Notes: generated by a model not told the origin, from the letters alone. DNA of 64,000 nt from an uncultured Gammaproteobacteria bacterium (GCA_947259485.1 CAMYLU010000001.1:140281-204280); one strand, 5' to 3'; positions 3,148 through 46,061 are shown, numbered from the stretch's first letter. Numbers and translations are program-made.

Positions 3148-6632
<3,485 letters not shown>

Positions 6633-7960: not shown

Positions 7961-9277
7961 CTAGTTGCTTAGCATGCGCGCCAGGATTTCCACGTCTTCA
8001 TCAATCCGCCGGTCTTCACCCCGCAATTCATCGATTTTACGGCAAGCATGGAGCACTGTCGTGTGGTCCCGCCCCCCGAAGGCACTTCCTATCTCGGGCA
8101 AACTATGGCGTGTCAATGATTTAGAAAGAGCCATCGCTATCTGGCGCGGGCGTGTAATAGAACGGTTGCGCCGACTTGATAATAGATCAGCGACCCGGAT
8201 TTTGAAATATTCCGCCACCAGCTTCTGTATATTATCGATGGTAATGGGCTTGTCTTGCACCGCGAGCAATTCTCTCAGGGCCTGGCGTGCAAAATCCTGG
8301 GTAATCGGCTCACCGGCAAAACGAGCATGTGCAACCACCCGCTTTAGCGCACCTTCGAGCTCGCGAATGTTCGATTTGAAACGTTCGGCAATAAAAAAAG
8401 CGACATCATCCGGCACATCTGCATCCACTTGTTCAGCCTTGCTGATCAGGATCGCCACGCGAGTCTCGAGATCGGCGGGTTTGATATCGACCGCGAGCCC
8501 CCATCCCAGGCGGGACTGGATTCGATCTTCGAGCCCTTCAATCTCTTTTGGAAATCGATCACAGGTAATGACCATCTGGGCTCGCGCCTCGTAAAGGGAA
8601 TTGAAGGTGTGGAAAAATTCTTCCTGCGATCGGTTTTTGTCGGCGAGAAACTGGATGTCATCGATGAGCAGGGCGTCGAGGCTACGATATGAATTCTTGA
8701 AATCATTCATACGGCTATGCTGCAAGGCCTTAACCATGTCGGAGACAAAACGCTCGCAATTTACGTACAAAATGTTCGCATCCGGGTTGTTTTCCCGGAT
8801 CTGGTTGCCAATCGCATGCATTAAATGCGTCTTTCCGAGGCCGACCCCACCGTAAATGTAAAGCGGATTATACTCAGAGCCGGGATTGCTGCTGATCTGG
8901 ATCGATGCAGCACGCGCTAGCTGATTTGATTTGCCTTCGACAAAGTTTTTGAATTTTTGGGATTCGTTAAGACCGGAGGAACGATAAGTTCGCGGCGGCG
9001 GTGTCGCGGTAACCGCATCGGGTTCTGCCGCCCTGGCATGGGAACCGATCATCAGGCTGACCGACATTGACTTGCTGTCATCAAGGCTGGTAACCAGTTC
9101 GCGTATGCGGTCAAGAAAATGTTTGCGAACCCAATCCATAACAAAACGGTTCGGAGCCAACAATTTCAGCGTATTGAGTTCCTGTTCTACCTGTAATGGC
9201 AAAATCCAGGTATTGAGCTGTTGCTCACTGATTTCGCCTTCCAGGCAGGCAATACACTGTTGCCAGATTGAATTCAA
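7961..9277 (-). CDS. dnaA: Chromosomal replication initiator DnaA
   Basis: 438 aa. AAA+ Walker [17 protein letters not shown]; C-terminal DNA-binding region [16 protein letters not shown]; diverges from rpmH. Confidence 0.98.
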
Positions 9278-17220: not shown

Positions 17221-17305
17221 GTGCTCCTGACGGGCCCCGGGTTAAACACGACCCAATACTTTTTGCGGTTTAAAAAAGGGCATAAATTAATTTTTTGCGC
17301 TGCGA

Positions 17306-17331
17306 TGATCCAAATCGTCGAGCCAAACGTA
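17306..17331 (+). promoter_or_regulatory. Candidate ChrR-type ECF sigma promoter (TGATCC-N16-CGTA)
   Basis: TGATCC at 17306-17311, an exact 16-nt spacer, then CGTA at 17328-17331. This is the same architecture as the two motifs flanking the ECF sigma gene at 41379-41435. It lies in the polA-engB spacer with no protein-coding ORF downstream. Confidence 0.45.
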
Positions 17332-17433
17332 GATTTTTGAAAGACCCGGACCGGGGGGTTTAAAAAGTTAAATCAGTCCCCAAGTAATAGCTTTAAGAGT
17401 CATCCAACGCACCGCGATACGGGCAATCTGAAG

Positions 17434-17460
17434 GAACTAAATGCCGTATCGGGTGTCTAC
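17434..17460 (+). promoter_or_regulatory. Candidate RpoE/AlgU-type promoter (GAACTA-N16-TCTAC)
   Basis: Resembles the GAACTT-N16/17-TCTGA consensus. It sits just upstream of the structured RNA core, but it also lies in the loop and 3' arm of a possible 8-bp hairpin (17414-17421 with 17444-17451), so it may be a chance match. Confidence 0.3.
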
Positions 17461-17465
17461 CTAAC

Positions 17466-17580
17466 TGGCGCTATAGCCCAGCGCTAGGTCCGTTCTCCCT
17501 CCTATGAGCGGACAAAGATCCGGAAACCCCATCCGGATCACACGTTTGTCCCTGGCAGTTATCTGCCAGGGCTTTTTTTT
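17466..17580 (+). ncRNA. Candidate small regulatory RNA at the Spot 42 (spf) / ErsA syntenic locus
   Basis: Lies in the 393-bp polA-engB spacer, on the same strand as polA. Consecutive hairpins: 17467-17472 with 17480-17485; GTCCG 17488-17492 with CGGAC 17509-17513, whose 16-nt loop carries CUCCCUCCU; GATCCGGA 17517-17524 with TCCGGATC 17532-17539. A terminator follows at 17550-17580. The 5' end is uncertain and could be near 17338 if the upstream ECF-type promoter is used. Confidence 0.55.
17550..17580 (+). terminator. Rho-independent terminator
   Basis: Stem CCCTGGCAG (17550-17558), loop TTAT, stem CTGCCAGGG (17563-17571), then C and a run of eight T (17573-17580). Confidence 0.85.
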
Positions 17581-17613
17581 GCGCCTAAAGTGCTGAAGTT
17601 AAGCCGATCCAAC

Positions 17614-19724: not shown

Positions 19725-21422
19725 CTAGCTGGTGCTCCATCCGAAGCGGGCGATTGCGATATTACCCTTACCATGGAATTCCAGTGATTCACATAAATCC
19801 TGGATTAGCAGCAGGCCACGGCCGCTCAGGGCCGTAGCCTCGTCGGTCGGCGGGTCGTGGTTTTCGAAATCAAAACCCTTGCCGCTGTCCTCGATGCGAA
19901 GCAATATACTGCGTCGGGTTGACTCCTGTTCAACCGACAGGTTGAAAATCACGTGGCCGCTGTCGAGATTGGCAAGTCGACTTTCACGTGTCTGAAAGTA
20001 GGTCTCGAAACCTGCTGGATCGGCCTTTAAATTGGAATCAAGGCCCAGTACACCGTGATCGAGAGCGTTTATATACAGTTCGGTCATAACCGTGAATAAT
20101 GATTGCCGCTCGGCTTCCAGTTCTTCCATCTCCATGAGGTAGTTAACCAGGATTGGAACCGGGTTGGTTTCACGCAGTCTGGCCCCATTAAAACGCATCG
20201 ACAGTTTCCATTCGCCGCGATCTCCCAGCATGTACTTTGACGGTTTGATGTAGTCATGCACCTCTATTTCGGGCAACACATCGTGGACGCAGGTAATTTC
20301 GACCAGTGTGACGTCGTCGGCCTGGGTGGTGTTATCGCCACAAAATTGATCGAGATCATCGAACACCTGGTCGAATATGCTGTTTTTGGGCGCATTTGAA
20401 ATGGACGCTAGCAGCCGGTTACTGCCGAACTCCTTATCCTGCCCATTACGGGCTTCGGTTAAACCGTCGCTATGCATCAGTATTTTGTCGTTGTAAGCGA
20501 TCGGGGCGTATTGCAACATTTCCCTGGGGTCAATAACCGCCTCAACACCCAGGGGCAAACCGGTAGATGTCAGGCGGTGCTTGATCTGGTTGGTTTCTCC
20601 ATCGACGATTATCACGTCCGGCATACCGGCATTGAACACGCGCACATGTTCGAGGTCATGGTTCACGACTACCAGTTGGGCACCAAAGAACATACCGACA
20701 GGCAACATTGACTTCAATTTCTTGTTGATGCCGGTAAGTATTTCTTCGGCACTGAATCCCTTGGTGGTCATGGCACGAAATACTTCGGAAACCGGCATCG
20801 CGCCGAGCGCGGCGAGCAGTCCGTGTCCGGTGAAATCCCCGGTCAGAAAAAACAGGTCGCGCGAAGGTGAGTAGGCCGATAAAACCATGTCACCACTGAA
20901 GATGCCGGCAGGTCGCACGACATGTCGCAGATGCGGGTTCTCGATGTTGGAACTCTGGATCGCATTAATAAACACTGACTCAGCGATTTCCTGCTCACGG
21001 TGAATCATGCTGTACATGCCCTGTACTTCGCTATTCAGTGCGGCGATACGCTGCATCGAGCGGATTTTACTCTGCAGGATAAATTTATCGTAAGGCTTGA
21101 TCAGGAAATCATCGCCACCGGCCTCGATACACTGCGCGAGCGCTTCCTCATCACTCATTGCTGTCAGGAAAATGACCGGTACAAAGCGGTTCGCGGCAGC
21201 CGCCTTGATTTGACGTGTCGCTTCGTAACCATCAAGCACGGGCATCATCACGTCCATGAAAATGATGCTGGGGTTTTCCTGATGGAACAGGTCGATTGCT
21301 TCCTGTCCGTTGACGGCTTCAATGGTTTGGTAACCCTGCTTGTTCAGCAGCGACTTTAAAACTAGCCGATTGGTTTTTTCGTCGTCGACGATCAGGGCTT
21401 TGCCGAGGCCGATATCACTCAT
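19725..21422 (-). CDS. Three-domain regulator: receiver (REC) - PP2C/SpoIIE phosphatase - RsbW-like HATPase kinase (HsbR-like)
   Basis: 565 aa. REC domain: ALIVDDEKTNRLVLKSLL...IIFMDVMMPVLDGYEATRQIK. Central PP2C-like region: GDFTGHGLLAALGAM...HSDGLTEA. C-terminal GHKL-type region: ELYINALDHGVLGLDS...RIEDSGKGFDF...GRGLLLIQDL. Confidence 0.8.
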   Translation of the reverse strand: MSDIGLGKALIVDDEKTNRLVLKSLLNKQGYQTIEAVNGQEAIDLFHQENPSIIFMDVMMPVLDGYEATRQIKAAAANRFVPVIFLTAMSDEEALAQCIEAGGDDFLIKPYDKFILQSKIRSMQRIAALNSEVQGMYSMIHREQEIAESVFINAIQSSNIENPHLRHVVRPAGIFSGDMVLSAYSPSRDLFFLTGDFTGHGLLAALGAMPVSEVFRAMTTKGFSAEEILTGINKKLKSMLPVGMFFGAQLVVVNHDLEHVRVFNAGMPDVIIVDGETNQIKHRLTSTGLPLGVEAVIDPREMLQYAPIAYNDKILMHSDGLTEARNGQDKEFGSNRLLASISNAPKNSIFDQVFDDLDQFCGDNTTQADDVTLVEITCVHDVLPEIEVHDYIKPSKYMLGDRGEWKLSMRFNGARLRETNPVPILVNYLMEMEELEAERQSLFTVMTELYINALDHGVLGLDSNLKADPAGFETYFQTRESRLANLDSGHVIFNLSVEQESTRRSILLRIEDSGKGFDFENHDPPTDEATALSGRGLLLIQDLCESLEFHGKGNIAIARFGWSTS

Positions 21423-26200: not shown

Positions 26201-26899
26201 GCCGGCAATCTTTCGTGGTTGCTCCATCATTTCAGCCAGGCTGGCCCGGGCTTCCGGTATGACGCGTGCAGACGGTTTATTTCGCAGCTCGAGCAGGGTC
26301 GCGATCAGACCATCAAGATCCGGTATATTGTCGTGAATCAATTGCCAGCCATCACTGTCAAGTTCGTATGTCCGCTTTCGCCACCAGTCTTTAATAGCGG
26401 ATTCCCAGATCGGGCCGTCATCGGTTAGCATGTCGCTGTCAAAAAGCTGGTTACCGGATAATGCGTGTTGCTGCAGGCTGCGCTGGCAAAAGCTGTGAAT
26501 CGTCGAGATTGAGGCTTCGTCCATGCTGCGTATTGCCAGCTGCAGGCGGTTGATCCAGGCCTTGCGCGAATCCTCATCGAGGTCTTGTGACTGTTTCAGT
26601 AACAGCATCAGCAAATCGTCTGCGCAGGCAGCGGAGTGCTGGAGCAAGTCCAACGCCTCGTAGAGCCGTCTGCGAATTCGACCACGCAATTCCTCGGTTG
26701 CAGCGTTGGTGTAGGTAACAATCAGAATCTGTGACGGTTGTCGACCGTCGAGGATATGTCTCAGGTACAGGTCGGCGATGGTGTGTGTTTTACCGGTACC
26801 GGCGCTGGCCTCGATGAGTTTAAATCCTTCAAGATCGAGCCCTAGTACCGCCCCGGCGTCGAGAATAGTTGAAGTCGAGGCTTCAGGCACTTTTTTCAC
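23291..26899 (-). CDS. recB: Exodeoxyribonuclease V beta subunit RecB
   Basis: UvrD-like Walker A EASAGTGKTHTI; C-terminal nuclease motif VIDLVF...YYIADYKSN. The track ORF extends to 27058 inside recC. I prefer the GTG at 26899 (VKKVPEAST...), which overlaps the recC stop by 17 nt. The exact start is uncertain. Confidence 0.9.
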   Translation of the reverse strand: MKKVPEASTSTILDAGAVLGLDLEGFKLIEASAGTGKTHTIADLYLRHILDGRQPSQILIVTYTNAATEELRGRIRRRLYEALDLLQHSAACADDLLMLLLKQSQDLDEDSRKAWINRLQLAIRSMDEASISTIHSFCQRSLQQHALSGNQLFDSDMLTDDGPIWESAIKDWWRKRTYELDSDGWQLIHDNIPDLDGLIATLLELRNKPSARVIPEARASLAEMMEQPRKIAGSLHRLAPLWLKYRADIIEIISNSTVLSRAVKLPYHPLNLPQLLETADNFFNAPEPASPFRNFQYLGTELLQQNSKPSKRGQDPGLEHEFFKQVGPVANAWLEFTSEISPQLRADAYHTAALQVIEAKRELTALAYQDQLTLLLDALESSTGKTLAESLRQQYPVALIDEFQDTDSIQYKIFSHIYLSADNTSLTLIGDPKQAIYSFRGGDIFTYMQARQLPQVDLFSLQTNWRSQPDLVHAINTFFSHRPDAFIYQDSILFSRVESITQNAIHELRLEAKGVSAMTLWQLPRYENQGNYSRQAMRDLINQAVASEISSLLDAAGRQSATIDGRPVQSGDIAVLVRQASEGQALSRILNRRGIRSVTIGRDSVYQSDEASGLYDLLLAISQYQDQDLARRSLTSSLLNLDYRQIAAIVDSDSAWQSWLEELGELQQLWDRQGFIAMFQSLLHKFEITRSLAQKDNPERRITNLLHLAELLQQQSTITAGMTPMISWFHDQFEENNSEDAELRLENDEALVKIVTIHKSKGLQYPIVFVPFLWSCKQVDRSKAVYFHDFELAPCIDLGSAELGANWLIAEKERLAEDMRLLYVALTRARSKVYLAWGLAGDPGKPGYANQTALAYLLHSRQSPVDLESAAADGFPDDMNFASDLQNLVDKSNETIELLPLPVESEPPVPGPEVAQQAPAKLAWFSRTKLNQWRINSFTGLTRGIHQPGNAGTLASQGDPILDFPAGSHIGLLIHSLLENLDFQQDSGQQCRQLFSRYLPRSGLAAEHEQALVMWLEQVRLTPLDQAGMTLSDLANKQRLNELSFDFALDHLDIEALNQFMQSLSPTPLKALSSPEFHGLMTGVIDLVFVHQGRYYIADYKSNFLGTRLEDYDPEKLQLAMLDRRYDLQSLLYSLALHRFLQQRLHDYNFEQHFGGAYYLFLRAMRPQHGIRYGVHFDRPTEPTIVALDQLMSFTPLEPVNT

Positions 26900-29800
26900 C
26901 GTGCTGGATTGCTGGCAGATAGATTTGCCGTGCACAATCCTGGAACAATGAATCTTCGAGCGGCCTGGTCGTATTCTGCTGCAACGCCAGCCGTATGAAT
27001 TCGTCTTCGCATTCACCCGGGGGCGCATTCCGGTATTGGCCCCCGTTCCAGCAAGCAAGCGCTTTGCTCATCGCAGCCTCAGGATCAGCCTGCGATGCAT
27101 AGGCGTAGCTGGTGTCCGGAAACACCGGTAGAGGATACTCGAGGCCTTGTTGAAACAGCGCGATATAGCTAGCCAGAATCTGTTTGGCTATACCTGCTTC
27201 GAGATATTCAAAACGAAGACCCTTTGTGTTCGGGATTAGCAATTGACTGCTCTCGTGCCGGGCTATCTGGTCGGTCGCAGATAAAGCCAGGTGATCAAGC
27301 CAAAGCGACATTAGTGCTCTGCTCTTGACGGCTTTACTCGCGCTGAAGTGCATCAATCCAGTGTCGGGATAACAGGCGTTTACTTCTCCATACAGCAGTG
27401 GCAGTTCGTCAATTCGACACTCGACTGGCCTGGTAATGGGTTGCTTACCGCGAAAGTCCTCCAGTTGCTCGAGTAAAACACGGTATTCTGACTGAATTGC
27501 AAGCCATTCGGTTTGCGCGGCCCTGCCGTGCGGCAGCAGACCCAGCGCGGAAAACGTCGCATTGTCATTTTGACGACCGTTTAACTGGTTATCCGCAAGA
27601 CGTACTGCAAGATCCCACTTCTGTAGTCCCTGCAGGGTAAAACTTTCTTCGTCGTCGGAATCCGTTTCGGCAGGAATCCTGATACCCAGCCTCGAGCTGA
27701 AGAAGTATCGAATGGGATGGCTGAAGAATCGCTTCAACATCTGGAGATCGATGCCACTATCCAGGTTTAAGGTAGAGGCAAGTGATTCCTTCTGCCAGGC
27801 CCGGGTTCGATCAGGGGGTTTGCTTGCAGCAAGATATTGCGACGTGTCAAACCAGTATTGGTCGTAACCGGGATTGCCCGGTGTAAAATTTCTTGCAGAA
27901 AAAGCCTGCATCGGATGAATCCGTGAAATCTGCTCACTGACTGTTCGACCGCTGTCATCGGTTGCGAAGTTGATATCGAGGTAATCGAGCAGTTCGCGCA
28001 GCAACACCGAAGGCTGACATTCACTATTATCCTTGAAACTGCGCCCACAATAACTGAAATAAAGGTAACGCCGTGCGCACAACAGGGTTTCGAGCATCAG
28101 GTAGCGGTCTTCATCGGATCGAAGCGGGTCACCCGGGCGCCATTGGTGATGCATCAGGTCAAACTCGGCGGGATGGTCCCTGCGCGGGAAGGCGTTGTCC
28201 TGCATACCGAGCACACAGATAACCGGAAACGGGATGTTGCGCATGGGTTGCATACCACAAAAAGTGATCCCGCCTGAATAGAGGCGGCCCGGTTGTTGAT
28301 TTGTTGCCAGTTGTTTTTCCATCCAGTAACAAACCAGGGCAGGGCTCAATTCAACCGATTCTGATTGACCGATTTCACTGATCGCGTTACGCAACGGTAG
28401 CAGCAAGTCATCAGCCACAATTCGCGGCGAAAAGAACTCTTCGATCAATTGATGCAAACGCTGCTGCCATTCTCCGGCGCACGCAACAGTTCCAAGTTTT
28501 TCATGCCAGTATGTCAGGCGCTCGAAAAGGTACCTGAACTGGGATATGGCAACGCCACCATCGGTGCCTATCTCGGTAATCGGTGCAATACCATGCCAAA
28601 GGGTATCTTCGAGCATCGCGTAGCCGGCAAAAAACCGGTCCCAGGCCTGTTGCCAGGTATTTTCGTGAATTGCGGGCAGGCCGAGGGCTCGTCGCTGATC
28701 TGCGTCGATACCCCAGTGTACCCGGCTGGAATCAAGCAGTTGATATATAAGTTCCAGCATTTGCTGATCGATACCGAATCGATTTCGAATTTCGCCACAC
28801 TCGAGAAAGGCCAGCACATCGGAGCGGGTGAACCTGCTGCCGGGTAGTTTCAATAATTGCAGAAAAATACTCACCAGTGGATGGGCGTCGCTAACACTGA
28901 TATCGGAAATATTCCAGGCCAGGTCGGGGCGCTTGTCACCGGTATCCTGTTGAAAAACTGCTTCGATGTATGGTGCGTAGCGACTTATTTCGGGGACCAT
29001 AACCAGGATGTCTTCGCTCGACAGTTCAGGATGCCGATCAAGCAGCATCAGCAGGTGATCATGTAGCACCTGGCATTCCCGCATCGGGCTATGACATATT
29101 TGAACCGAGATGGAATCATCGATCGTTATTCCGGGTTCCGGTTTTTCAAGATTAAACAGGCTCGCCTGCAGGCATTGCAGGGTGCTGTCATTGCCAGGAG
29201 GTTGATTATCTTCAATTTCATTGCCGCTAACCGATCCCATTTCAAGCAATAAATCCTGCATCACCTGCCCCTGTCGGCCCCAGGAAGCCAGCAAGCTGTT
29301 ACTGGAATCAAGATACTCTGCGTCGGCAGGATTTTGCAGGCGCATTTTCGCCTTTGCTTTTTCACTGACCAGGTCGGCCCAGTACTCGTCCGTGGGATTA
29401 TGCTGATAGAGAATTATTTCGGTTCTGCGCGCGACAGCGTTAATAAATTCGATGACAGGGGGTGCGAGACTGGACAGCGCAAACAGGCTGATACGTTCGG
29501 GAAGATTGATTTCGACGGGGCTGTTGTCGAGGCGGTCGATGATGCCTCCCATAATATCAACCCGATGAGGCTGCTTCCTGGCAGCAACAATTTTCCGCCA
29601 CAGCCGGGCCTGCCACTGGTTGTCGTTGCCATGCGACCAGTCGCGAATCAACTCCGGTCTATATACCTGGTAGTGGTCGAAGCTGATCGCGATTCGTTGC
29701 GCCAGTTGCCAGCGCTTGATACCGCTCTGGTCGTCATCGAGATACCAGCGCAATGATGCAAACCTATCCTGACTCAGCAGCCCGGGCAAGGCTGCAAAAA

Positions 29801-30086
29801 TCTGCCAACCGAGCAAGTCCCTGGAATAGGGGTCTTGATGAGGCAGTTCCTGCAGTATCCGGCCGGCTAGTTCCCATATCCACTCTCCCACCTGGGGATA
29901 TTGGATGTTTGCCGCGATTCCCTGTTGTTGCGCGATACGCAGATTCAGCCAACGCGACATCGCGTAGGTCGGGACCACGATTACCTCGTGCGCGAACGGG
30001 TCTGTCAATGGCTCGACGGCAAGATGCTGCGTTAACCGCGATTGTAGCGTTTCGATTCGATTGGAGCTCAGGATGCTTAAAGCCAT
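26883..30086 (-). CDS. recC: Exodeoxyribonuclease V gamma subunit RecC
   Basis: 1067 aa. N-terminus MALSILSSNRIETLQSRL; recC-recB-recD order. Confidence 0.92.
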   Translation of the reverse strand: MALSILSSNRIETLQSRLTQHLAVEPLTDPFAHEVIVVPTYAMSRWLNLRIAQQQGIAANIQYPQVGEWIWELAGRILQELPHQDPYSRDLLGWQIFAALPGLLSQDRFASLRWYLDDDQSGIKRWQLAQRIAISFDHYQVYRPELIRDWSHGNDNQWQARLWRKIVAARKQPHRVDIMGGIIDRLDNSPVEINLPERISLFALSSLAPPVIEFINAVARRTEIILYQHNPTDEYWADLVSEKAKAKMRLQNPADAEYLDSSNSLLASWGRQGQVMQDLLLEMGSVSGNEIEDNQPPGNDSTLQCLQASLFNLEKPEPGITIDDSISVQICHSPMRECQVLHDHLLMLLDRHPELSSEDILVMVPEISRYAPYIEAVFQQDTGDKRPDLAWNISDISVSDAHPLVSIFLQLLKLPGSRFTRSDVLAFLECGEIRNRFGIDQQMLELIYQLLDSSRVHWGIDADQRRALGLPAIHENTWQQAWDRFFAGYAMLEDTLWHGIAPITEIGTDGGVAISQFRYLFERLTYWHEKLGTVACAGEWQQRLHQLIEEFFSPRIVADDLLLPLRNAISEIGQSESVELSPALVCYWMEKQLATNQQPGRLYSGGITFCGMQPMRNIPFPVICVLGMQDNAFPRRDHPAEFDLMHHQWRPGDPLRSDEDRYLMLETLLCARRYLYFSYCGRSFKDNSECQPSVLLRELLDYLDINFATDDSGRTVSEQISRIHPMQAFSARNFTPGNPGYDQYWFDTSQYLAASKPPDRTRAWQKESLASTLNLDSGIDLQMLKRFFSHPIRYFFSSRLGIRIPAETDSDDEESFTLQGLQKWDLAVRLADNQLNGRQNDNATFSALGLLPHGRAAQTEWLAIQSEYRVLLEQLEDFRGKQPITRPVECRIDELPLLYGEVNACYPDTGLMHFSASKAVKSRALMSLWLDHLALSATDQIARHESSQLLIPNTKGLRFEYLEAGIAKQILASYIALFQQGLEYPLPVFPDTSYAYASQADPEAAMSKALACWNGGQYRNAPPGECEDEFIRLALQQNTTRPLEDSLFQDCARQIYLPAIQHGEKSA

Positions 30087-35100: not shown

Positions 35101-37632
35101 ATGCCATCGATTAAGTCTCTATTGCGCCGCGACTGGTTTATCGGACTGGTCATTACAATCTTGTTCCTGTACCTCGCAGAGGCAGGCTGGATGGCTGCGC
35201 TCGATCGCCAGGCTTATAATTTTGGAGCGAAGTTTTCTGCGGCTAAAGAGCCGCACGAAGATATCGTAGTAGTTGCCATTGATGACAAATCGATACAGGC
35301 ACTCGGAGCGTGGCCCTGGTCGCGCGAGGTACTGGCTAAAACCACGCGTCTACTGTCCAGGGCAAAGCCCTCTGTCATGGGTTTTACGATGCCATTCGAC
35401 ACGGGTCAGCACGGTGCCGGATTGTCTTCGTTGGCCGGGTTGCGCGCCATCCTCAGTAAAGAGAAAAAACTCAGCAAGCGGGTTAACAAGGCTCTAAGAA
35501 GGGCTGAGGTGAACCTGCATGGCGATAAGAACCTCGCCAGCAGTTTTAAATCTGGCGGTCGAATCGTCCTCGCGATGCCCTATACCCCTACCGAAAAACC
35601 ATTGACGGGACTAAGTTCTTCGCTACCCCAATACATGCAAAAATTTGCTTTACCCAAGGTTAGTGCAAATGGAGGTAGTCGCGGTTTCGGCTGGCCATCG
35701 CCGAAAATTAACCGGGCTTCAGAAATCTCCCCGCCCATTGAACTATTGGCAAAGCAGGCGGGTGGGATTGGTGTAATCAGCCTTGTCGAACCGTTCAACG
35801 GTGAACCGTTGATCGTACAATACGGCAGCGATTATCTGCCATCGTTTTCACTAATGCTGGCAGCTCGCAGTAAAGGTATGTCAGTGCAGCATATCGAATC
35901 CAGGGCCAGTGCCAGGCCGATGCTCGGCGGTGATGATCTTGGTGCGGACATAAACTTCGGCATCTACCCGCGCTTTTATAAAGACAAGGATGGTAAATCG
36001 GCTTTCAAGATATACTCGTTAATTGATGTTCTTAACGGAGGTGTGGCCACGGATGTTTTTCGTGACAAGATTATTATCGTTGGATTGACGTCACCAGGCA
36101 TTGCGCAGCCGCGTTTGACACCCACGGGACAGGCGATTTCATCGACAGTGGCTATCGCCCATACGGTCTCAAGTCTGCTCAACAATGAACAATACCGTTT
36201 GCCGGACTGGGCCGGCTGGGCACAGCGTGGAATTATTGTCGTGGTCGGACTTTACCTGATGCTGGTAATGGGTCGTTTTCGCCCCAACACCGCATTTTTT
36301 TTAAGCCTGTTTCTGATACTAATGATTTTCAATGCGCATTTTATGCTGATGAGCTCGCAGTCGTTATGGTTGCCGATGATGTCCGCGGTGGCCATGTTAA
36401 TCGTTGGGCATTTGATACTGGGAACGCGGCAGTCGGTGAATGCACGTTTAAGCCTGGTGCGGGGCGAGCTGTCGACTGCAAATCGTCTACTCGGGCAGTC
36501 GTTGCATGCGCAGGGAAACCTGGACCAGGCCTTTGCAAAGTATCGCAGCTGCCGGGCAGATGAATCACTGCTTGGACAGGTTTACAACCTGGGTCTTGAC
36601 TATGAACGCAAGCGGCAACATAACAAAGCGGCGGCAGTCTTCAAGTTTATCTTTGAGCACGATGCCAAGTTCAGCGACGTAAGTGAGCGCATACAGCAAA
36701 ACGAAAACGCGGCCAATGCGGTGGTTCTCGGCAGTCGAGACCCAACTGGTCCCGGTCCGAATCTGATTTCTGGTGCAGATACACTGGAGAAGCCGAAACT
36801 GGGTCGCTACCGTATCGAAAGTGAAATCGGTCGCGGTGCGATGGGAATGGTTTATCTCGGCCAGGACGACAAGATCGGCCGTACCGTGGCAATCAAGACG
36901 ATGTTGCTATCGGATGAGATAGAAGACGAAATGCGCGATGAGGTTCGCACCCGTTTTTTTCGTGAAGCAGAGGCCGCTGGAAGGCTTGATCATCCCGGTA
37001 TCGTTACTGTTTACGACGTCGGGGACGAGCAGGATCTAGCCTATATCGCGATGGATTATCTCAAGGGCAAGGACCTGACAGCATACACCAGTCCCAAAAC
37101 ACTGCTGCCGGTAAGCGAGGTATTTAACATCATTATCAACGTTGCGACGGCACTAGATTATGCCCACCAGCAGCATGTCGTGCATCGAGATATCAAGCCG
37201 GCGAACATCATTTACGATGACGAAAAACGCGTTGCCAAGATAACCGATTTTGGCGTTGCCTGTCTCACCGACGCGAGCAAAACCAAAACCGGCACCGTAA
37301 TCGGCAGCCCCTATTACATGTCGCCCGAACAGCTTGCCGGCAAGAAAGTAGATGGCCGCGCAGACCTTTTTTCACTAGGGGTGATGATGTTCCAGATGCT
37401 ATGTGGTGAATTACCATTCAAGGGCGATTCAATCGCCAGCCTGATGTATAACATCGCCAATGAGAGGCATCCCGACATCCGGCGTTTTCGTTCCGACCTG
37501 CCGAACTGTGTCAATAACCTGATTGACAGGATACTGGAAAAAGAAGCGCAGCAGCGTTTTGAAAGCGGCCAGGAAATGGCAGATACAATGAAACTTTGCC
37601 AGGAGCATATCCGCGAGATGGAAGCCGCCTGA
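35101..37632 (+). CDS. CHASE2 sensor domain - TM - TPR-like linker - Hanks-type Ser/Thr protein kinase
   Basis: 843 aa. N-terminal TM helix plus a periplasmic CHASE2-like region (VVVAIDDKSIQALGAWPWSR). A TM cluster lies around aa 370-440. Kinase motifs: GRGAMGMV, VAIK, HRDIKPANII, DFGVA, YMSPEQ. Confidence 0.8.
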   Translation: MPSIKSLLRRDWFIGLVITILFLYLAEAGWMAALDRQAYNFGAKFSAAKEPHEDIVVVAIDDKSIQALGAWPWSREVLAKTTRLLSRAKPSVMGFTMPFDTGQHGAGLSSLAGLRAILSKEKKLSKRVNKALRRAEVNLHGDKNLASSFKSGGRIVLAMPYTPTEKPLTGLSSSLPQYMQKFALPKVSANGGSRGFGWPSPKINRASEISPPIELLAKQAGGIGVISLVEPFNGEPLIVQYGSDYLPSFSLMLAARSKGMSVQHIESRASARPMLGGDDLGADINFGIYPRFYKDKDGKSAFKIYSLIDVLNGGVATDVFRDKIIIVGLTSPGIAQPRLTPTGQAISSTVAIAHTVSSLLNNEQYRLPDWAGWAQRGIIVVVGLYLMLVMGRFRPNTAFFLSLFLILMIFNAHFMLMSSQSLWLPMMSAVAMLIVGHLILGTRQSVNARLSLVRGELSTANRLLGQSLHAQGNLDQAFAKYRSCRADESLLGQVYNLGLDYERKRQHNKAAAVFKFIFEHDAKFSDVSERIQQNENAANAVVLGSRDPTGPGPNLISGADTLEKPKLGRYRIESEIGRGAMGMVYLGQDDKIGRTVAIKTMLLSDEIEDEMRDEVRTRFFREAEAAGRLDHPGIVTVYDVGDEQDLAYIAMDYLKGKDLTAYTSPKTLLPVSEVFNIIINVATALDYAHQQHVVHRDIKPANIIYDDEKRVAKITDFGVACLTDASKTKTGTVIGSPYYMSPEQLAGKKVDGRADLFSLGVMMFQMLCGELPFKGDSIASLMYNIANERHPDIRRFRSDLPNCVNNLIDRILEKEAQQRFESGQEMADTMKLCQEHIREMEAA

Positions 37633-37651: not shown

Positions 37652-39079
37652 TTAGACCAATGCCTTGAAGCGTGCCAGCGCTCTCTGGCGGGTTGTTTTT
37701 AAATCAAGAATTGGCGCCGGGTAGTCTGTGCCGAGCTTGATCCCCGCAGCAGCTAAAACCTCTTCACTCGCTTCCCAGGGTTTGTGCCGAAACCTGGCTG
37801 GAAGACCTGCGAGTTCAGGGCAGAATCGAAGCAGGTATTCCCCCTCAGGGTCAAATTTTTCACTTTGTAATACCGGGTTGAAGATTCGAAAGTAGGGCGC
37901 AGCGTCGGCACCGGACCCGGCACACCACTGCCAGCTTGCGGCATTACTGGCGAGGTCTGCATCTACCAGGCAATCCCAGAACCAGTTTTCACCGATACGC
38001 CAGTGAACGAGCATATTCTTAATCAGGAATGAAGCAACAATCATCCTGACGCGATTATGCATGTACCCGGTTTGCCAGAGCTCGCGCATCCCGGCATCGA
38101 TAATTGGAAACCCGGTACGGCCCTCGCGCCAGGCTTGTAAACCTGTCGGCTTATCAAGCCACTGGAAACCATCAAACTTGCTATTGAAGTTCTGTTGCGG
38201 AAGCCCGGGGTAGTGATACAGCAAGTGGTAAGAAAACTCTCGCCAGGCGATTTCGCGTAAGAAATGGGCGGGTCCGTCACCATCATCATGCATGCGTGAG
38301 TGATCGATCTGGTGCCAGATCTGGTGCGGAGATATTTCGCCAAAATGCAGGTGCGGCGAGAGCCTGGAAGTTGCGTCGAGCGCGGGGAAATCCCTTCCAC
38401 GTTTGTAATCGGTAAGGGTATTCTGCCAGAAGGCATCGAATTTTTGAGCTGCCGCGCTTTCGCCGATTTGCCAATGGCTGCTCAGTGACTGATGCCAGCA
38501 GGCCGATGGCAATAGTTCGAGGTCATCGATCGATTCGCTGTTTTTAATGTCAAGGTTACACCATTGAACCTGTTCGGCTGGTGCTAGCGGTTGGCGTGGC
38601 GGTGGTGATGACAGGCAACCTTTCTGGTAAAACGGTGTGAAAACCCGGTAGGGGGTGCCGTCTTTCTTGCTGATGTCCCAGGGCTCCCATAACAGCGCAG
38701 CGTTGAAACTGCGGGTCTGGATATCTCCCGCGATCAGGTCCGCCTTTATTTGGGCGTCGCGTTTTATGCGCCAGGGCTCGTAGCAGCGATTCCAGAAAAC
38801 TCCTTCCAGTGGCAAACTCGCGGCGAGTTGTGCGATGACTTCACGCGCGTCGCCCCTGAAAATTCTGAGCCTGCCGTCAAGTGCAAGATTCAGTGCGTTC
38901 AACGAATGATGTAACCAAATCCTGCTCGCCGCACCCATCGCCCAATCTGCCGCGTTAACATCGTCCAGGATATAAATCGGCAGCACTTCGCCAGCCGCGG
39001 CCGCGGCGTTTAGCGCCGGGTTATCCGAGATTCTAAGGTCCTGGCGAAACCAGGCTATGGCGACGGGTTTTGTAGTCAA
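37652..39079 (-). CDS. phrB: Deoxyribodipyrimidine (CPD) photolyase
   Basis: 475 aa. N-terminus AIAWFRQDLRISDNPAL; FAD-binding region TGFPIIDAGMRELWQTGYMHNRVRMIVASFL; WQWCAGSGADAAPYFRIFNP. Confidence 0.93.
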   Translation of the reverse strand: MTTKPVAIAWFRQDLRISDNPALNAAAAAGEVLPIYILDDVNAADWAMGAASRIWLHHSLNALNLALDGRLRIFRGDAREVIAQLAASLPLEGVFWNRCYEPWRIKRDAQIKADLIAGDIQTRSFNAALLWEPWDISKKDGTPYRVFTPFYQKGCLSSPPPRQPLAPAEQVQWCNLDIKNSESIDDLELLPSACWHQSLSSHWQIGESAAAQKFDAFWQNTLTDYKRGRDFPALDATSRLSPHLHFGEISPHQIWHQIDHSRMHDDGDGPAHFLREIAWREFSYHLLYHYPGLPQQNFNSKFDGFQWLDKPTGLQAWREGRTGFPIIDAGMRELWQTGYMHNRVRMIVASFLIKNMLVHWRIGENWFWDCLVDADLASNAASWQWCAGSGADAAPYFRIFNPVLQSEKFDPEGEYLLRFCPELAGLPARFRHKPWEASEEVLAAAGIKLGTDYPAPILDLKTTRQRALARFKALV

Positions 39080-39102
39080 AACTGAGTAAAGATTTGTTGG
39101 CG

Positions 39103-40062
39103 CTAGAGTGAATTAAGCAGCATGAGCTCGTCGGGATGCGGCTGCATGTAGTACGAGCGCTCGATGTATTGATTGGGATTACGGCGAAAGTGATGCCGCA
39201 ACAGGGTAATCGGAACAATCAGCGGCAGCAGCCCCAGGCGATAATTTTCTATACAGTTGCTCAATTCCTGCTTGTCGCTTTTATCAAGCTCCCGCTTCAG
39301 GTAACCGCGTACATGTTCAAGCACGTTAACGTGGTTCGATCGTTTTGCAAAAATTCTAAGAATGCTCATCATCTGTGCAAGATAGCGGGGTGCGTATTCC
39401 TCGATTGGGCCCTGATGCGCAGCCGAGAGCTCACGCCCCAGTTTACGTCCCAGGTCCTGGTTGTGACTATAGAGTATTAGCTTGTGGCGAGCATGAAAGT
39501 CGGTTAATGCCGCCCAGTCGAGCCCCGAGTGGATCATCTTATGCCAGCGCTGGTAGATGAAAACTCGTTTGACAAAGCTTTCGCGCAACACCGGATCGCC
39601 GAGACGACCCTCTTCCTCGACTGGCAGCGCCGGGAAGTTCTGCATCAGGGTTTCGGTATAGAGCCCGATGCCGCTGCGTTGCGGCTGGTCTTTATGGTAA
39701 ACCTTTACCCGCTCCATGCCGCAGCTGGGCGAATCTTTCTTGACGATGTAGCCGAATATCTTTTGTTGCCATGATTTCTGGTCATGGGAAATCTGGATCA
39801 GTGCCTGGGTGACGTTGAGTTCGGTATTCTTGTTGCCAACCGCCTCGGTCTTGCCCGCAACATCAACCAGGCGAATGGTTTCTCTCGGGACACCGAGCCC
39901 GATCGCCATTTCGGGGCAAAACGGGCGAAAACTGAAGTATTGGCCGAGTGTATCGAGAATGTAGCGGTTTTGTTTATGGCCGCCATCGAAGCGAACCTTC
40001 TCTCCGATCAGACAGCTGCTGATACCCAGCGGAATTTTTTCATGCCCGTCAGCGACGGGCAT
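39103..40062 (-). CDS. DUF523 (TudS-like) - DUF1722 (YbgA-like) fusion protein
   Basis: 319 aa. The N-terminal half has three spaced Cys (C17 in ISSCLIG, C49 in PFCPEM, C114 in SPSCGM), as in the [4Fe-4S] DUF523 family. The C-terminal half is YbgA-like. It sits directly upstream of phrB, as ybgA-phr does in E. coli. Confidence 0.75.
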   Translation of the reverse strand: MPVADGHEKIPLGISSCLIGEKVRFDGGHKQNRYILDTLGQYFSFRPFCPEMAIGLGVPRETIRLVDVAGKTEAVGNKNTELNVTQALIQISHDQKSWQQKIFGYIVKKDSPSCGMERVKVYHKDQPQRSGIGLYTETLMQNFPALPVEEEGRLGDPVLRESFVKRVFIYQRWHKMIHSGLDWAALTDFHARHKLILYSHNQDLGRKLGRELSAAHQGPIEEYAPRYLAQMMSILRIFAKRSNHVNVLEHVRGYLKRELDKSDKQELSNCIENYRLGLLPLIVPITLLRHHFRRNPNQYIERSYYMQPHPDELMLLNSL

Positions 40063-40091
40063 GGTTTTCTGGTGTTTGTTGGGGCGCGGGA

Positions 40092-40754
40092 TCAGGCATA
40101 ACCGCGACGGATAAACGGGTTAAGCAATCGATGCAGGAATCCGGTGAACTGAATCGGGCCCTCGGTGACCGCGAGGCAAATGCATTCGCGATCCTGGGTG
40201 GCGACAGGCGTGTGCTGGTCCTTCTCGTCTCTGACGAGGAAGTCACCCTGACCGTAAAGACCGGATTCATCGGAAAAGCTGCCCTCGAGGATTACCGTGT
40301 ACTCGTCACCCATGTGGGTATGCGTCGTCGCAGAACCACCGGGTTTGATTTTCAGCAATTCAACCTTGGCGCCATTGCTGTCGCGGCACAGCTCGGCGCT
40401 GTGAATGTCGGCAGAGACACGCTTCCAGTCCAGATCATCGTAACCCTTGTCGATAAACTGGTGCAGGCAACGTGGCACCCGGGAATCGACCTCACGGGGT
40501 TGTTCTTGCGCAAGATCCTGCGGCAATGAATCAAGCATGCCAAGCAGCTTGTTCTTAAGCTCGTCCGATGCCTTCGCAGGCTTCAGCTGCTGCATCAGTT
40601 CGCTGCCGACGTGATTAAGTTGTTGCAGCCGCTGCCCGCAGCTGTGGCAGTGTTCCAGGTGTGCCGAGATGCACAATGCCTGGCTTAATGGCAGGCTACC
40701 CGCAGAGTAGGCGGCCAGTAATTCGTCATAGGGATGGTTGTTTGATTGATCCAT
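40092..40754 (-). CDS. chrR: Anti-sigma factor ChrR (zinc-binding ZAS N-domain plus cupin C-domain)
   Basis: 220 aa. H7 plus H32-x3-C36-x2-C39 (AHLEHCHSCG) closely parallels the Zn ligands I recall for R. sphaeroides ChrR. Cupin motif HTHMGDEYTVILEGSF. Its start is 2 nt after the sigma-gene stop. Confidence 0.88.
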   Translation of the reverse strand: MDQSNNHPYDELLAAYSAGSLPLSQALCISAHLEHCHSCGQRLQQLNHVGSELMQQLKPAKASDELKNKLLGMLDSLPQDLAQEQPREVDSRVPRCLHQFIDKGYDDLDWKRVSADIHSAELCRDSNGAKVELLKIKPGGSATTHTHMGDEYTVILEGSFSDESGLYGQGDFLVRDEKDQHTPVATQDRECICLAVTEGPIQFTGFLHRLLNPFIRRGYA

Positions 40755-40756
40755 GG

Positions 40757-41344
40757 TTACCTCGTTACCAGTACTTCGAGTTTCTTCAATGCCAGGCGCA
40801 CACGGGATTTAACCGTGCCCAGTGGCAGCTTCAGCTCTTCGCTGGTTTGTTGATGGCTTTTCCCCTCCAGGTAGACTTTGGTTAATACTTCGGCTTGCTC
40901 TTGCGGCAGTTGTTCCAGTCCTTCACGTACACTTTGCTGGGCCTTGTTTTGCTGTACCATCTGGAATGGTCCGGGGCCCTCGTCTTCCATTTCGTTAAAG
41001 ATGTCGGTTGGATCGATTTCAGTCGCGTAACGACTATTGCGTCGCAAGTAATCGATGCGACAGTTTCGTGCCAGCGTGAAAATCCAGGTATTGAGGTTGG
41101 CAAGCTTTGCGTTATATTTTTCGGCCTTGAGCCAGACCCGGGTCATGACTTCCTGCACCAGTTCGTCTGCGACCAGGTCTGCACCGGGTTCACGCGCGAG
41201 ACTGTAAGCGCGGATGAGTGGCGTGTAGTGATCAAATAGCTCGGCGAATGCCGATTTGTCGCGCTTGTCAGCAACACGACCAATGCAGGCGCTCAGATGC
41301 GCAAGCTTGTCGCTCTTTCCTGTCGTGGTTGCCATGAGGGCCAT
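40757..41344 (-). CDS. ECF RNA polymerase sigma factor, ChrR-partnered (R. sphaeroides sigma-E type)
   Basis: 195 aa. Region 2: LVQEVMTRVWLKAEKYN...NTWIFTLARN. Region 4: SHQQTSEELKLPLGTVKSRVRLALKKL. Co-transcribed with chrR. Confidence 0.9.
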   Translation of the reverse strand: MALMATTTGKSDKLAHLSACIGRVADKRDKSAFAELFDHYTPLIRAYSLAREPGADLVADELVQEVMTRVWLKAEKYNAKLANLNTWIFTLARNCRIDYLRRNSRYATEIDPTDIFNEMEDEGPGPFQMVQQNKAQQSVREGLEQLPQEQAEVLTKVYLEGKSHQQTSEELKLPLGTVKSRVRLALKKLEVLVTR

Positions 41345-41378
41345 TATATACTCTCGATTTTGCGTTTATAGGCCTTAT

Positions 41379-41404
41379 TACGTCTGAGCGACGATACTGG
41401 ATCA
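41379..41404 (-). promoter_or_regulatory. Candidate autoregulated ECF promoter (TGATCC-N16-CGTA on the minus strand)
   Basis: The plus strand reads TACG (41379-41382), 16 nt, then GGATCA (41399-41404). The minus strand therefore reads TGATCC-AGTATCGTCGCTCAGA-CGTAATAAGG, ending about 35 nt upstream of the sigma ATG. Confidence 0.65.
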
Positions 41405-41409
41405 CTGAT

Positions 41410-41435
41410 TGATCCATTTCTTTATCGTGGGCGTA
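41410..41435 (+). promoter_or_regulatory. Candidate ECF promoter for the lipid-modification operon (TGATCC-N16-CGTA)
   Basis: TGATCC (41410-41415), spacer ATTTCTTTATCGTGGG, then CGTATAAGT from 41432, ending 46 nt upstream of the ATG at 41482. It lies back to back with the minus-strand copy, with 5 bp between the two -35 hexamers. Confidence 0.65.
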
Positions 41436-41481
41436 TAAGTCCCCCAACAACCTGTATCTTAAGCGAGAGAGATCTAATTGA

Positions 41482-41910
41482 ATGAATGCTGACACACCCA
41501 TAATCGAACACTTCAAGGATTATTTCCGGGTCCTGCACCAGTCCGACCTGAGCCAATTGCGCGAGTTCTATTCCGATCGCATCGTGTTCAAGGACCCGGT
41601 TCATGAAATCAGGGGCCTCGTTGAACTCGAGGACTACTTCACTTCGATGTGCTCCGACCTCAGCGATTGCCGCTTCGAGTATCTCGACGAACTCACCAGT
41701 GACAGCGTTGCCTATATCAAGTGGATGATGCACTTCAAACATCCGAAACTGGGCAATCGCCTTATTAGTGTGCGCGGTGTCAGCCATCTTCAGATCAGCG
41801 ACAAAATTGAATTTCACGAGGATTTCTATGACATGGGCGCGATGCTCTACGAACAACTGCCGTTGCTTGGCAACGTCACGCGTTGGCTTAAATTGCGCCT
41901 GGTGAGCTAG
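41482..41910 (+). CDS. NTF2/SnoaL-like fold protein
   Basis: 142 aa. Sequence HFKDYFRVLHQSDLSQLREFYSDRIVFKDPVHEIRG, typical of the SnoaL-like family. First gene of the operon. Confidence 0.7.
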   Translation: MNADTPIIEHFKDYFRVLHQSDLSQLREFYSDRIVFKDPVHEIRGLVELEDYFTSMCSDLSDCRFEYLDELTSDSVAYIKWMMHFKHPKLGNRLISVRGVSHLQISDKIEFHEDFYDMGAMLYEQLPLLGNVTRWLKLRLVS

Positions 41911-41914
41911 CATC

Positions 41915-42706
41915 ATGAACGGCAAAACACCCAAGGTGATATGGATTACCGGTGCCAGTAGTGGCCTCGGCAGGAGCCTGGCGCTGCAGCTTGCCAACCA
42001 GGGTAACCGGGTGATTGCATCGGCCCGTAACCAGGCAGAGCTTGAAAAGCTCGCTGCGCAGAATACAAATATTGTCGCCCTGCCTTGTGATATCACCGAT
42101 GAAGAAGCAATGCAATCGCTAAGCTCGCGCATCGAGGAAATCTCACCAGCGCTCGACCAGGTGATACTGAACGCCGGAAACTGTGAGTATCTCGATTTTC
42201 CCGATCCCGACTGGTCGGCTGTGCGCCGTGTCATGGAGGTGAACTTTTTTGGCACGCTTAACTGCGTCAAGCTTGCGCTGCCCTTATTAAAGAAAAGTAA
42301 CAGCGATCGCCCCCACGTGGTAGCAGTCGTTTCGCAGGTGACTGCCGCGCCGTTCCCAAGGGCCGAGGCCTACGGGGCTTCGAAGGCAGCGATGCGTTAT
42401 TTCTTCGACAGTTTGCGCATGGATCTCGCGGCCGATGACATTGATGTGACAGTGGTTAATCCCGGCTTTGTCGATACCCCGCTGACGCGCAAGAATGATT
42501 TCCCGATGCCTTTCCTGATGCAGGTGGATGAGGCGGCAGAACGCATCGTTAAAAATATTGCAGCAAGGCCCAGGCAGTATAGTTTTCCACTGCGACTCTC
42601 AGCCCTGTTGTCGCTGTCAAAAATCTTACCCGGCGTATGGCAAAAAATGGTAGCTGCGGACGCCGCTATGCCTGCAAAAGATTCCGGGGAAGGTGTGAGC
42701 AAATGA
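41915..42706 (+). CDS. Short-chain dehydrogenase/reductase (SDR)
   Basis: 263 aa. Cofactor motif ITGASSGLGRSLA; catalytic YGASKAA. Confidence 0.88.
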   Translation: MNGKTPKVIWITGASSGLGRSLALQLANQGNRVIASARNQAELEKLAAQNTNIVALPCDITDEEAMQSLSSRIEEISPALDQVILNAGNCEYLDFPDPDWSAVRRVMEVNFFGTLNCVKLALPLLKKSNSDRPHVVAVVSQVTAAPFPRAEAYGASKAAMRYFFDSLRMDLAADDIDVTVVNPGFVDTPLTRKNDFPMPFLMQVDEAAERIVKNIAARPRQYSFPLRLSALLSLSKILPGVWQKMVAADAAMPAKDSGEGVSK

Positions 42707-44001
42707 ATATTGCGATAATCGGTGCCGGGATTTCCGGCTTAACTGCCGCTTATTATTTGCATGATAAACACAATATTACCGTTTACGAAGCGGCGCCCCA
42801 AGTCGGTGGGCATACCGCAACGATCAACGTCGAGCACGAAGGTCGGCATTACGCGATCGACACCGGATTCATTGTTTACAATGACTGGACTTATCCGAAT
42901 TTTATCGAGTTGATGCAGGAACTGGGGGTTGAAACCCAACCTACCGAAATGAGTTTCAGCGTGCGTTGCGATGAAAGCGGCCTCGAGTATGGCGGAAATA
43001 ATCTGAATACCTTGTTTGCACAGCGTCGTAACCTGCTGCGACCTTCATTCCACCGGATGTTGCGTGATATTCTGCGCTTCAACCGCGAGGCGATTGCTGA
43101 TCTCGAAAGGGGGCGCATATCTGCGACAACCACGCTCGGCGAGTATCTTGTCGACAATCGTTATGGTGAGGCGTTCATATACCAGTACCTGCTGCCAATG
43201 GGATGCGCTATCTGGTCTGCCTCCACCGAGCGCATGGTCGATTTTCCACTGCTCTTTTTCACCCGGTTTTTTAAGAATCATGGTCTGTTAAGCGTTAACG
43301 ATCGACCGCAATGGCATGTCATCAAGGGTGGGTCAAGGCGTTATCTCGAGCCCCTGATCCAGGAGTTTAGCAGCGCCATCAGGCTGGACGCCAAAATCTC
43401 TGCCGTGCGCCGCCATCAGCAAGCGGTAGAACTGGTCATGGCAAACGGGCTCACGGTACAATACGACCAGGTGGTTTTCGCCTGTCACAGCGACCAGGCG
43501 CTTGGATTGCTCGGAGATGCGTCCCGGGTCGAGCGTGACGCGCTCGAAGCGATTCCCTACCAATCCAACGAGGTGGTACTGCATACCGATGAGAGCCTGT
43601 TACCGCGTCATCGTGCGGCGTGGTCGAGCTGGAACTACTGGTTACGTGAGCGACATCAGCAGCGAGCAGTGTTGAATTACAATATGAACATACTTCAGGG
43701 CTTGAAATCGGACACCACTTTCTGCGTTACGCTCAATGCGACCGAGTCGATATCGCCCGCAAAAATTATCGATAGCTTCAACTACAGCCACCCGGTGTTT
43801 TCACTGGAATCGGTAGCGGCGGCGCAAAAGATCCAGGACTTTAACGGGTTAAATCGTACCTGGTTTGCAGGCGCCTACCTGGGTAATGGATTTCATGAAG
43901 ATGGTGTTGTCAGTGGACGACGCGTTGCCGATGCAATTAACCAGCTTGTGCCCTCGATGCCGGTGGATATCGGCTCATTCGACGATGTCGCTTATGCATA
44001 G
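42703..44001 (+). CDS. FAD-dependent oxidoreductase, amine-oxidase/desaturase-like (candidate UfaD-type fatty-acyl desaturase)
   Basis: Dinucleotide fold MNIAIIGAGISGLTAAYYL. ATGA overlap with the SDR stop. The track start at 42637 lies inside the SDR gene and is rejected. Confidence 0.8.
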   Translation: MNIAIIGAGISGLTAAYYLHDKHNITVYEAAPQVGGHTATINVEHEGRHYAIDTGFIVYNDWTYPNFIELMQELGVETQPTEMSFSVRCDESGLEYGGNNLNTLFAQRRNLLRPSFHRMLRDILRFNREAIADLERGRISATTTLGEYLVDNRYGEAFIYQYLLPMGCAIWSASTERMVDFPLLFFTRFFKNHGLLSVNDRPQWHVIKGGSRRYLEPLIQEFSSAIRLDAKISAVRRHQQAVELVMANGLTVQYDQVVFACHSDQALGLLGDASRVERDALEAIPYQSNEVVLHTDESLLPRHRAAWSSWNYWLRERHQQRAVLNYNMNILQGLKSDTTFCVTLNATESISPAKIIDSFNYSHPVFSLESVAAAQKIQDFNGLNRTWFAGAYLGNGFHEDGVVSGRRVADAINQLVPSMPVDIGSFDDVAYA

Positions 44002-46041: not shown

Positions 46042-46061
46042 TTGAGCGGTAAGGTCGCGGC

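Follow-up and report, generated by a model that had tools for sequence, protein, structure and literature searches.

Several small RNAs (sRNAs) linked to polA are known, namely Spot 42, ErsA, sX13 and the alpha-r7 family. Spot 42 (spf, RF00021) resides in the polA-engB spacer of enterics and Vibrionaceae. ErsA from P. aeruginosa is also polA-engB intergenic, is dependent on sigma-22/AlgU, and harbours an unstructured target-pairing domain (II) between its stem-loops SL1 and SL2 (PMC8575079). sX13 from Xanthomonas, reported in Xanthomonadaceae only, is a polA-adjacent RNA of ~115 nt with three stable stem-loops displaying apical C-rich motifs, and represses mRNAs with G-rich ribosome-binding regions (PMC3771888).

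ChrR-type promoters, the sRNA Pos19 and RpoH-dependent sRNAs are known as well. Outside phototrophs, the ChrR/sigma-E regulons known so far are small sets of protein-coding repair genes. The consensus TGATCC-N16-CGTA has been reported for RpoE2 promoters with mapped starts in S. oneidensis (PMC4336711) and for the PSPTO_1043 binding sites of P. syringae, which have ChIP support and, in many cases, qRT-PCR induction values (PMC5507510); the promoter tables of these two studies list no RNA gene. Pos19 from R. sphaeroides is an RpoE/ChrR-dependent sRNA of ~219 nt, whose sigma-E promoter is active in photo-oxidative stress. In the singlet-oxygen network of the same organism, CcsR1-4, SorX and SorY are stress sRNAs dependent on RpoHI/RpoHII. 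CcsR exhibits C-rich CCUCCUCCC loops. An initial interpretation of the DNA described below, made from the sequence alone (the sequence-only reading), had named Spot 42 in enterics and AlgU-dependent ErsA in P. aeruginosa as occupants of this locus and Pos19 as an alphaproteobacterial precedent. It had named no ChrR-controlled riboregulator at this position in a gammaproteobacterium, and our full-text literature search for ChrR-controlled sRNAs likewise found no gammaproteobacterial case.

We analysed a 64,000-nt stretch of DNA (the window) from an uncultured gammaproteobacterium. Its polA-engB spacer is predicted to encode one conserved sRNA of ~115 nt that has three apical loops rich in C and ends in a strong intrinsic terminator (Table 1). 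The core is nearly invariant in relatives, and in a consensus structure based on 44 sequences, six pairs display compensatory changes. A covariance model of the core extended the family to Woeseia- and Steroidobacteraceae-like MAGs, where distant members adjoin engB (E values from 7.5e-8 to 2e-3). The model also gave a weak match within the window at 8740-8833 on the minus strand (11.9 bits, E 0.25), which is probably due to chance.

Table 1. Coordinates of features in the window (64,000 nt). Transcription starts and transcript lengths are predictions.
Feature	Position	Strand	Remarks
polA, end	17220		
ChrR-type (ECF11-like) promoter motif	17306-17331	+	exact; -35 TGATCC 17306-17311, 16-nt spacer, -10 CGTA 17328-17331; ~125 nt upstream of proximal promoter; offset kept in relatives with diverged spacers
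Predicted start, long isoform (ChrR-type)	~17340	+	conserved A, 9 nt after CGTA; transcript ~241 nt
Sigma-32 (RpoH)-like block	17359-17385 (17358 with leading G)	+	(G)TTTAAA-N13-CCCCAAGT; motif-level; ~75 nt upstream of proximal promoter
Predicted start, sigma-32-type	~17392	+	transcript ~190 nt
RpoE/AlgU (sigma-24)-like promoter (proximal)	17433-17459	+	GGAACT-N17-TCTA; directly upstream of core
Predicted start, RpoE/AlgU-type	~17465	+	transcript ~115 nt
Conserved sRNA core	17464-17583	+	115-120 nt; fold z = -6.9
SL1	17466-17486	+	loop UAUAGCC
SL2	17488-17513	+	loop UCUCCCUCCU
SL3	17517-17539	+	loop AAACCCC
Terminator	17550-17571 + U8	+	9-bp G+C-rich stem
engB, end	17614	-	
RecC gene	26883-30086		mid-point anchor for locus comparison
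CHASE2 Ser/Thr kinase gene	35101-37632		island border
ChrR regulon island	37652-47916		10 kb, between kinase and radical-SAM genes
ChrR anti-sigma factor gene	40092-40754	-	Pfam PF12973 ChrR cupin
ECF sigma factor gene	40757-41344	-	Pfam Sigma70_r2 + r4_2; presumed reader of motif
Two divergent cognate promoters	41379-41435	both	exact motifs 41379-41404 (-) and 41410-41435 (+); sigma/chrR operon and SnoaL-to-CFA-synthase operon
Radical-SAM (YgiQ-like) gene	47921-50095		island border

The position in the polA-engB spacer is one that the sRNA shares with Spot 42 and ErsA. At gathering thresholds, no Rfam family matched the window. An identity with Spot 42 was rejected (16.4 bits against a gathering threshold of 80), as was one with anti-hemB (RF02837), the Rfam family that scored highest on the core (26.9 bits, E 3e-4, against 49.5). 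Compared by description, the layout resembles that of sX13 and the alpha-r7 family, with adjacency to polA, a length of ~115 nt and three stem-loops with C-rich loops; sX13 was absent among the Rfam matches at E values up to 10. By analogy with sX13, the loops of the core probably pair with G-rich ribosome-binding or Shine-Dalgarno-like regions of target mRNAs. Searching the window for sequence complementary to the SL2 loop turned up nothing other than the sRNA gene itself. With respect to ErsA, again compared by description only, the proximal promoter (Table 1) fits AlgU at the motif level, whereas C-rich apical loops are found here in place of an unstructured pairing domain. ChrR or RpoH promoters have not been reported for ErsA, nor has a promoter array such as the one described below been reported for sX13.

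The sequence-only reading had pointed to a TGATCC-N16-CGTA motif directed into this spacer, and to its identity in architecture with copies at an ECF sigma/chrR operon. Both observations proved accurate. The window contains three exact matches where 0.13 would be expected, a number that no dinucleotide shuffle out of 100 attained. One lies upstream of the sRNA, and the other two are arranged back to back in the interval that separates two divergent operons. One-mismatch copies at 15421 and 37012 were rejected, as they are located inside genes and such copies are no more numerous in the window than by chance (5 against 3.1 expected). The -35 TGATCC, the 16-nt spacer and the -10 CGTA of a ChrR-type (ECF11) promoter are matched upstream of the sRNA, and an ECF sigma factor and a ChrR anti-sigma factor are encoded in the window together with autoregulatory copies of the motif. 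Homologues of this ChrR bear the source name 'ChrR family anti-sigma-E factor'. The sigma/chrR operon comprises the genes for the ECF sigma factor, ChrR, a DUF1722/2-thiouracil-desulfurase protein and a photolyase, and the divergent operon, according to Pfam, those for SnoaL, SDR, amine oxidase, DUF1365 and cyclopropane-fatty-acid (CFA) synthase proteins. This is the gene content of a classic ChrR/sigma-E regulon. The regulons of R. sphaeroides RpoE, S. oneidensis RpoE2 and P. syringae PSPTO_1043 share with it the three promoter elements, a sigma/ChrR pair with autoregulatory motifs, the photolyase, the CFA synthase and the DUF1365/amine-oxidase operon. What sets the present case apart is its target, a non-coding RNA encoded between polA and engB. 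In the chrR loci of relatives, the gene order is the same and both divergent TGATCC-N16-CGTA promoters are kept, with different spacers.

We then considered whether the motif upstream of the sRNA is a selected promoter or a chance sequence. A scan of species-representative genomes based on EngB provided nine close uncultured gammaproteobacterial MAGs along with some distant ones, and a metagenome scan with a 28-nt core pattern, a choice independent of the promoter, added 40 more loci. The set for motif comparison consisted of 49 distinct polA-engB spacers, picked by the RNA core alone and each extending 260 nt or more ahead of it. The motif was exact in 23 of the 49 spacers and present with at most one mismatch in 32, compared to 0.04% and 0.8%, respectively, of shuffled upstream regions. 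In every case it shares the strand of the sRNA, and its distance to the SL2 marker downstream is constant at ~180 nt, except in a rearranged short variant (L005, L023, L054), where it is 95 nt; this variant has lost ~85 nt of the leader and nevertheless kept the motif. Retention of the motif extends to many uncultured marine relatives. In the DNA surrounding the spacers of these loci (776 kb, both strands), the exact motif was found once, against 19 times in the spacer. A conserved A nine nucleotides after CGTA was present in 27 of 29 motif-bearing spacers and is likely the start nucleotide of the ChrR-type promoter.

A motif of only ten specified bases, missing from some 12-17 of the related spacers (roughly one in four to one in three), might be neutral sequence without function. 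Such a reading would regain weight only with near-clonal loci, which is contradicted by the divergence of their spacers and flanks. The ten bases recur, identical, across at least eight unrelated sequence groups of the N16 segment. In the 29 motif-bearing sequences (at most one mismatch), the spacer and flanks carry 0.36 and 0.41 bits per position, compared to 1.84 bits at the ten specified positions, a value inflated by the selection of these sequences through the motif. Together with the enrichment over shuffles, the fixed offset and strand and the diverged N16 segments argue for a selected promoter footprint, and we regard a chance origin as very nearly negligible. On these comparative grounds, TGATCC-N16-CGTA upstream of the sRNA bears the marks of a selected promoter. 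The one-mismatch forms found at the same offset, AGATCC, GGATCC and TGATCT, resemble sites reported to be active in P. syringae (PMC5507510). Given the spacers in which the motif is missing, the sRNA can do without it.

Three further observations concern the individual spacers. A near-motif in L006, TGAACC-N16-CGTA, overlaps the sigma-32-like block described below and was judged spurious. L003, L004 and L069 have an additional insertion of ~120 nt (…GGCCACTGCATTGGCCTGGGAATTGACTAG…) between the polA stop and the ChrR-type motif; the spacer of the window lacks this insertion. In L075, the source annotates an 84-aa gene without a Pfam match inside the polA-engB spacer (20885-21139, minus strand); it probably overlaps the promoter region on the opposite strand and is likely a spurious call.

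Concerning the region between the motif and the terminator, the sequence-only reading had listed hairpins and a terminator at 17550-17580 as the sole features. The terminator was recovered, and the 245-nt stretch 17338-17582 folds with a z of -4.3, but two promoter-like blocks had been overlooked. Accordingly, what had been taken for a single new promoter into the sRNA locus, although supported comparatively, would be one member of an array of three. The block directly upstream of the core, GGAACT-N17-TCTA, has one match in the window against 0.02 expected. Before the core of the relatives, GGAACT-N16/17-TCTA was exact in 34 of the 49 spacers and present with at most one mismatch in 44. At the motif level it is the RpoE/AlgU (sigma-24) consensus, as found in the RpoE list of S. 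oneidensis (PMC4336711).

The other block resembles a sigma-32 promoter, the consensus of which is CTTGAAA-13/15-CCCCAT (PMC3168786). Position 17358-17385 agrees at the motif level with CTTGAAA, a gap of 13-15 nt and CCCCATnT, and the block is the sole match in the window to a pattern of the type (G)TTGAAA-N13-CCCCAnnT. With at most one mismatch, it was found in 32 of the 49 spacers, compared to 0.02% of shuffles, and it occurs in most related spacers, including ones without the ChrR-type motif. The segment 17355-17385 might instead represent an RNA hairpin of the long isoform formed by GGGG...CCCC. The sigma-32 consensus contains no G-run ahead of TTGAAA, and the minimum free energy fold does pair the G-run of this segment with the C-run. 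On the other hand, TTGAAA and CCCCAnnT are kept at a fixed gap of 13 nt across a variable spacer and match the published consensus directly, and L020, L024, L042 and L051 have lost the G-run and still keep a CCC-type -10 without compensatory change. Since the loci that lost the G-run maintain the C-rich -10 in this manner, we consider the hairpin unlikely and the sigma-32 promoter the more probable reading.

In this lineage, the sRNA gene would then be preceded by up to three tandem promoters for alternative sigma factors. The distant members L011 and L013-L016 (~3595-3777, minus strand), in which engB is adjacent, have just a GGAACTT-type promoter and a short spacer. The two upstream promoters therefore look like additions in the present clade. 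In L014-L016, the gene upstream of the sRNA is not polA. The RpoH-type promoter is reminiscent of CcsR1-4, SorX and SorY, stress sRNAs that also rely on sigma factors of the RpoH type. In R. sphaeroides, however, regulation proceeds as a cascade from RpoE via RpoHII to the sRNA, whereas the ChrR- and RpoH-type promoters appear to lie next to each other on one sRNA gene here.

As to the product of the distal promoter, the sequence-only reading had proposed either a transcript of about 240 nt or a second, longer isoform of the sRNA core. The latter fits best, with the predicted ~241-nt transcript. The terminator at 17550-17571 is the first intrinsic terminator downstream of the ChrR-type motif, and with none before 17550, the distal transcript would run through the leader and yield an isoform containing the whole core. 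All three predicted transcripts would share this one terminator. In the fold of the long transcript, the core hairpins persist and the C-rich loops stay exposed. The absence of an ORF of meaningful length, also noted previously, was confirmed. From 17340 to the terminator, a single ORF reaches 30 aa (17504-17596, inside the conserved core), and inspection of the sequence by eye revealed one other ATG downstream of the motif, that of a 7-codon frame at 17442. We also rejected a reading of the locus as a small-protein gene, as the leader has no usable ORF, and the 30-aa ORF 17504-17596 falls in the invariant core and lacks its ATG in distant members. Apart from the promoter blocks, no sequence in the leader is conserved, and a special function of the long isoform is thus unsupported. 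Taking into account that the leader is free of ORFs, that only the promoter blocks in it are conserved and that the short variant keeps the motif, the upstream promoters most likely bring further inputs to the core and not an additional functional domain. A longer isoform of the sRNA core is therefore the best-fitting reading of the distal transcript. We place the probability that the motif is a functional ChrR-type promoter giving rise to such an isoform at about 0.7.

A distal promoter could also fire without producing a functional long sRNA, either by interfering with or occluding the downstream promoters or by supplying a precursor processed to the core. Conservation of the leader at the promoter blocks only would be compatible with this, as would the short variant, in which the predicted start lies just ~7 nt before the sigma-E -35. 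The lack of a terminator ahead of the core and the persistence of the core hairpins in the long fold speak against it, and processing would deliver the same regulator, so that this version partly merges with the main explanation. We regard interference or processing as improbable. On the 3' side of polA (17221-17305), there is only a weak terminator-like hairpin at 17239-17254 followed by a T-run, and read-through from polA could also feed transcripts of the spacer.

If the long isoform is produced from a ChrR-type promoter, singlet oxygen or photo-oxidative stress would inactivate ChrR, and the freed ECF sigma factor would initiate distal transcription. Judging from the motifs, the sRNA probably receives a photo-oxidative stress input beside those of two other stress promoters. 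It would resemble Pos19 in having a direct ChrR-controlled promoter, and the size of Pos19 is near that predicted for the long isoform. Pos19, in contrast, is alphaproteobacterial, was titled a small coding RNA and has not been reported at polA, whereas the present sRNA is gammaproteobacterial, lacks a conserved ORF and has two further predicted stress promoters.

We also examined whether the motif is distributed in parallel with the chrR genes. The genes of both divergent operons and three more ORFs constitute an island of 10 kb between the CHASE2 kinase gene and the radical-SAM gene (Table 1). With RecC as the mid-point anchor, 23-kb loci around RecC homologues span both the sRNA and the island junction, and orthology of the junction genes was assigned by tblastn. 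L070 was left out because its contig stops before engB, and L073 because its sRNA is decayed and its contig stops before the island junction. The contigs of the ChrR homologues P0002 and P0038 had no counterpart among the sRNA-bearing MAGs. In L072 and L075, the orthologue of the island photolyase adjoins the kinase. In the island-negative relatives, the radical-SAM orthologue directly adjoins the kinase; L077 is the exception, lacking the kinase and having its radical-SAM gene bordered by other genes. The ChrR regulon is thus an island that is present or absent at the kinase/radical-SAM junction.

The window, L072 and L075 harbour the island, and each has the exact motif, the latter two with a different N16. 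Six loci lack the island at the junction. Of these, L071, L074, L076 and L077 have no motif, L078 has a degenerate form (TGGTCC-N17-CGTA) and L069 has the exact motif. The motif thus tracks the island in 8 of the 9 RecC-centred loci, as seen at the junction and not in whole genomes. The exact motif is found in 3/3 island-positive and 1/6 island-negative loci (Fisher one-sided p ~0.05, with lineages that are not independent). An alignment of related spacers and a check of co-occurrence with chrR had been suggested by the sequence-only reading, with absence of the motif from close chrR-positive genomes named as evidence against its proposal. In our comparison, all three island-positive lineages have the exact motif, and its retention in the spacers is clear, whereas the co-occurrence is qualified by L069 and by a small, dependent sample. 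Co-distribution of the motif with the chrR island is suggestive, bearing in mind that 'absent' refers to the junction and that the island could sit elsewhere in a genome.

Among the relatives, L069 is closest to the window, with 90% identity in RecC. Its island may have been relocated or recently lost. The combination of an exact motif with no chrR island at the usual position, in genomes each inspected in part, would also be accounted for if the promoter, while selected, were read by another ECF sigma factor of similar specificity, in which case the signal would not be singlet oxygen. We find this distinctly unlikely, as the window's two autoregulatory/regulon promoters and those in the chrR loci of relatives have the very same motif, its consensus is the one documented for ChrR-associated sigma factors, and it is kept in each of the three island-positive lineages but lost or degraded in five of the six without the island. 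The ECF sigma factor of the island remains the presumed reader. More broadly, an sRNA of the core genome with C-rich loops may be a point of convergence for the ChrR-controlled ECF sigma factor, sigma-32 and RpoE/AlgU through a tandem array, with the ChrR-type promoter gained, kept or lost along with the 10-kb island. We propose this tentatively, at a little under even odds.

With its components individually known, the locus offers a candidate for a gammaproteobacterial ChrR-dependent riboregulator, placed by its motifs in a three-sigma array that possibly co-varies with an island. If the sRNA is directly controlled by ChrR, the photo-oxidative response of non-phototrophic sediment gammaproteobacteria would include a post-transcriptional arm, which in our literature search was described for Rhodobacter only. 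An island-encoded sigma factor would have wired itself into a chromosomal riboregulator, and the sRNA would be the first ChrR-dependent one in gammaproteobacteria. The locus would also illustrate, in a small natural setting, how a single regulator gene can respond to three stress sigma factors, and how a core-genome promoter may co-vary with the accessory island encoding its sigma factor.

The decayed sRNA of L073 (17314-17430, minus strand) has an SL2 loop shortened to CCCCCCUGUA and an SL3 loop without CCCC. Its proximal promoter lacks TCTA, and none of the upstream stress-promoter blocks is present. L073 may represent a lineage that is losing the sRNA regulator.
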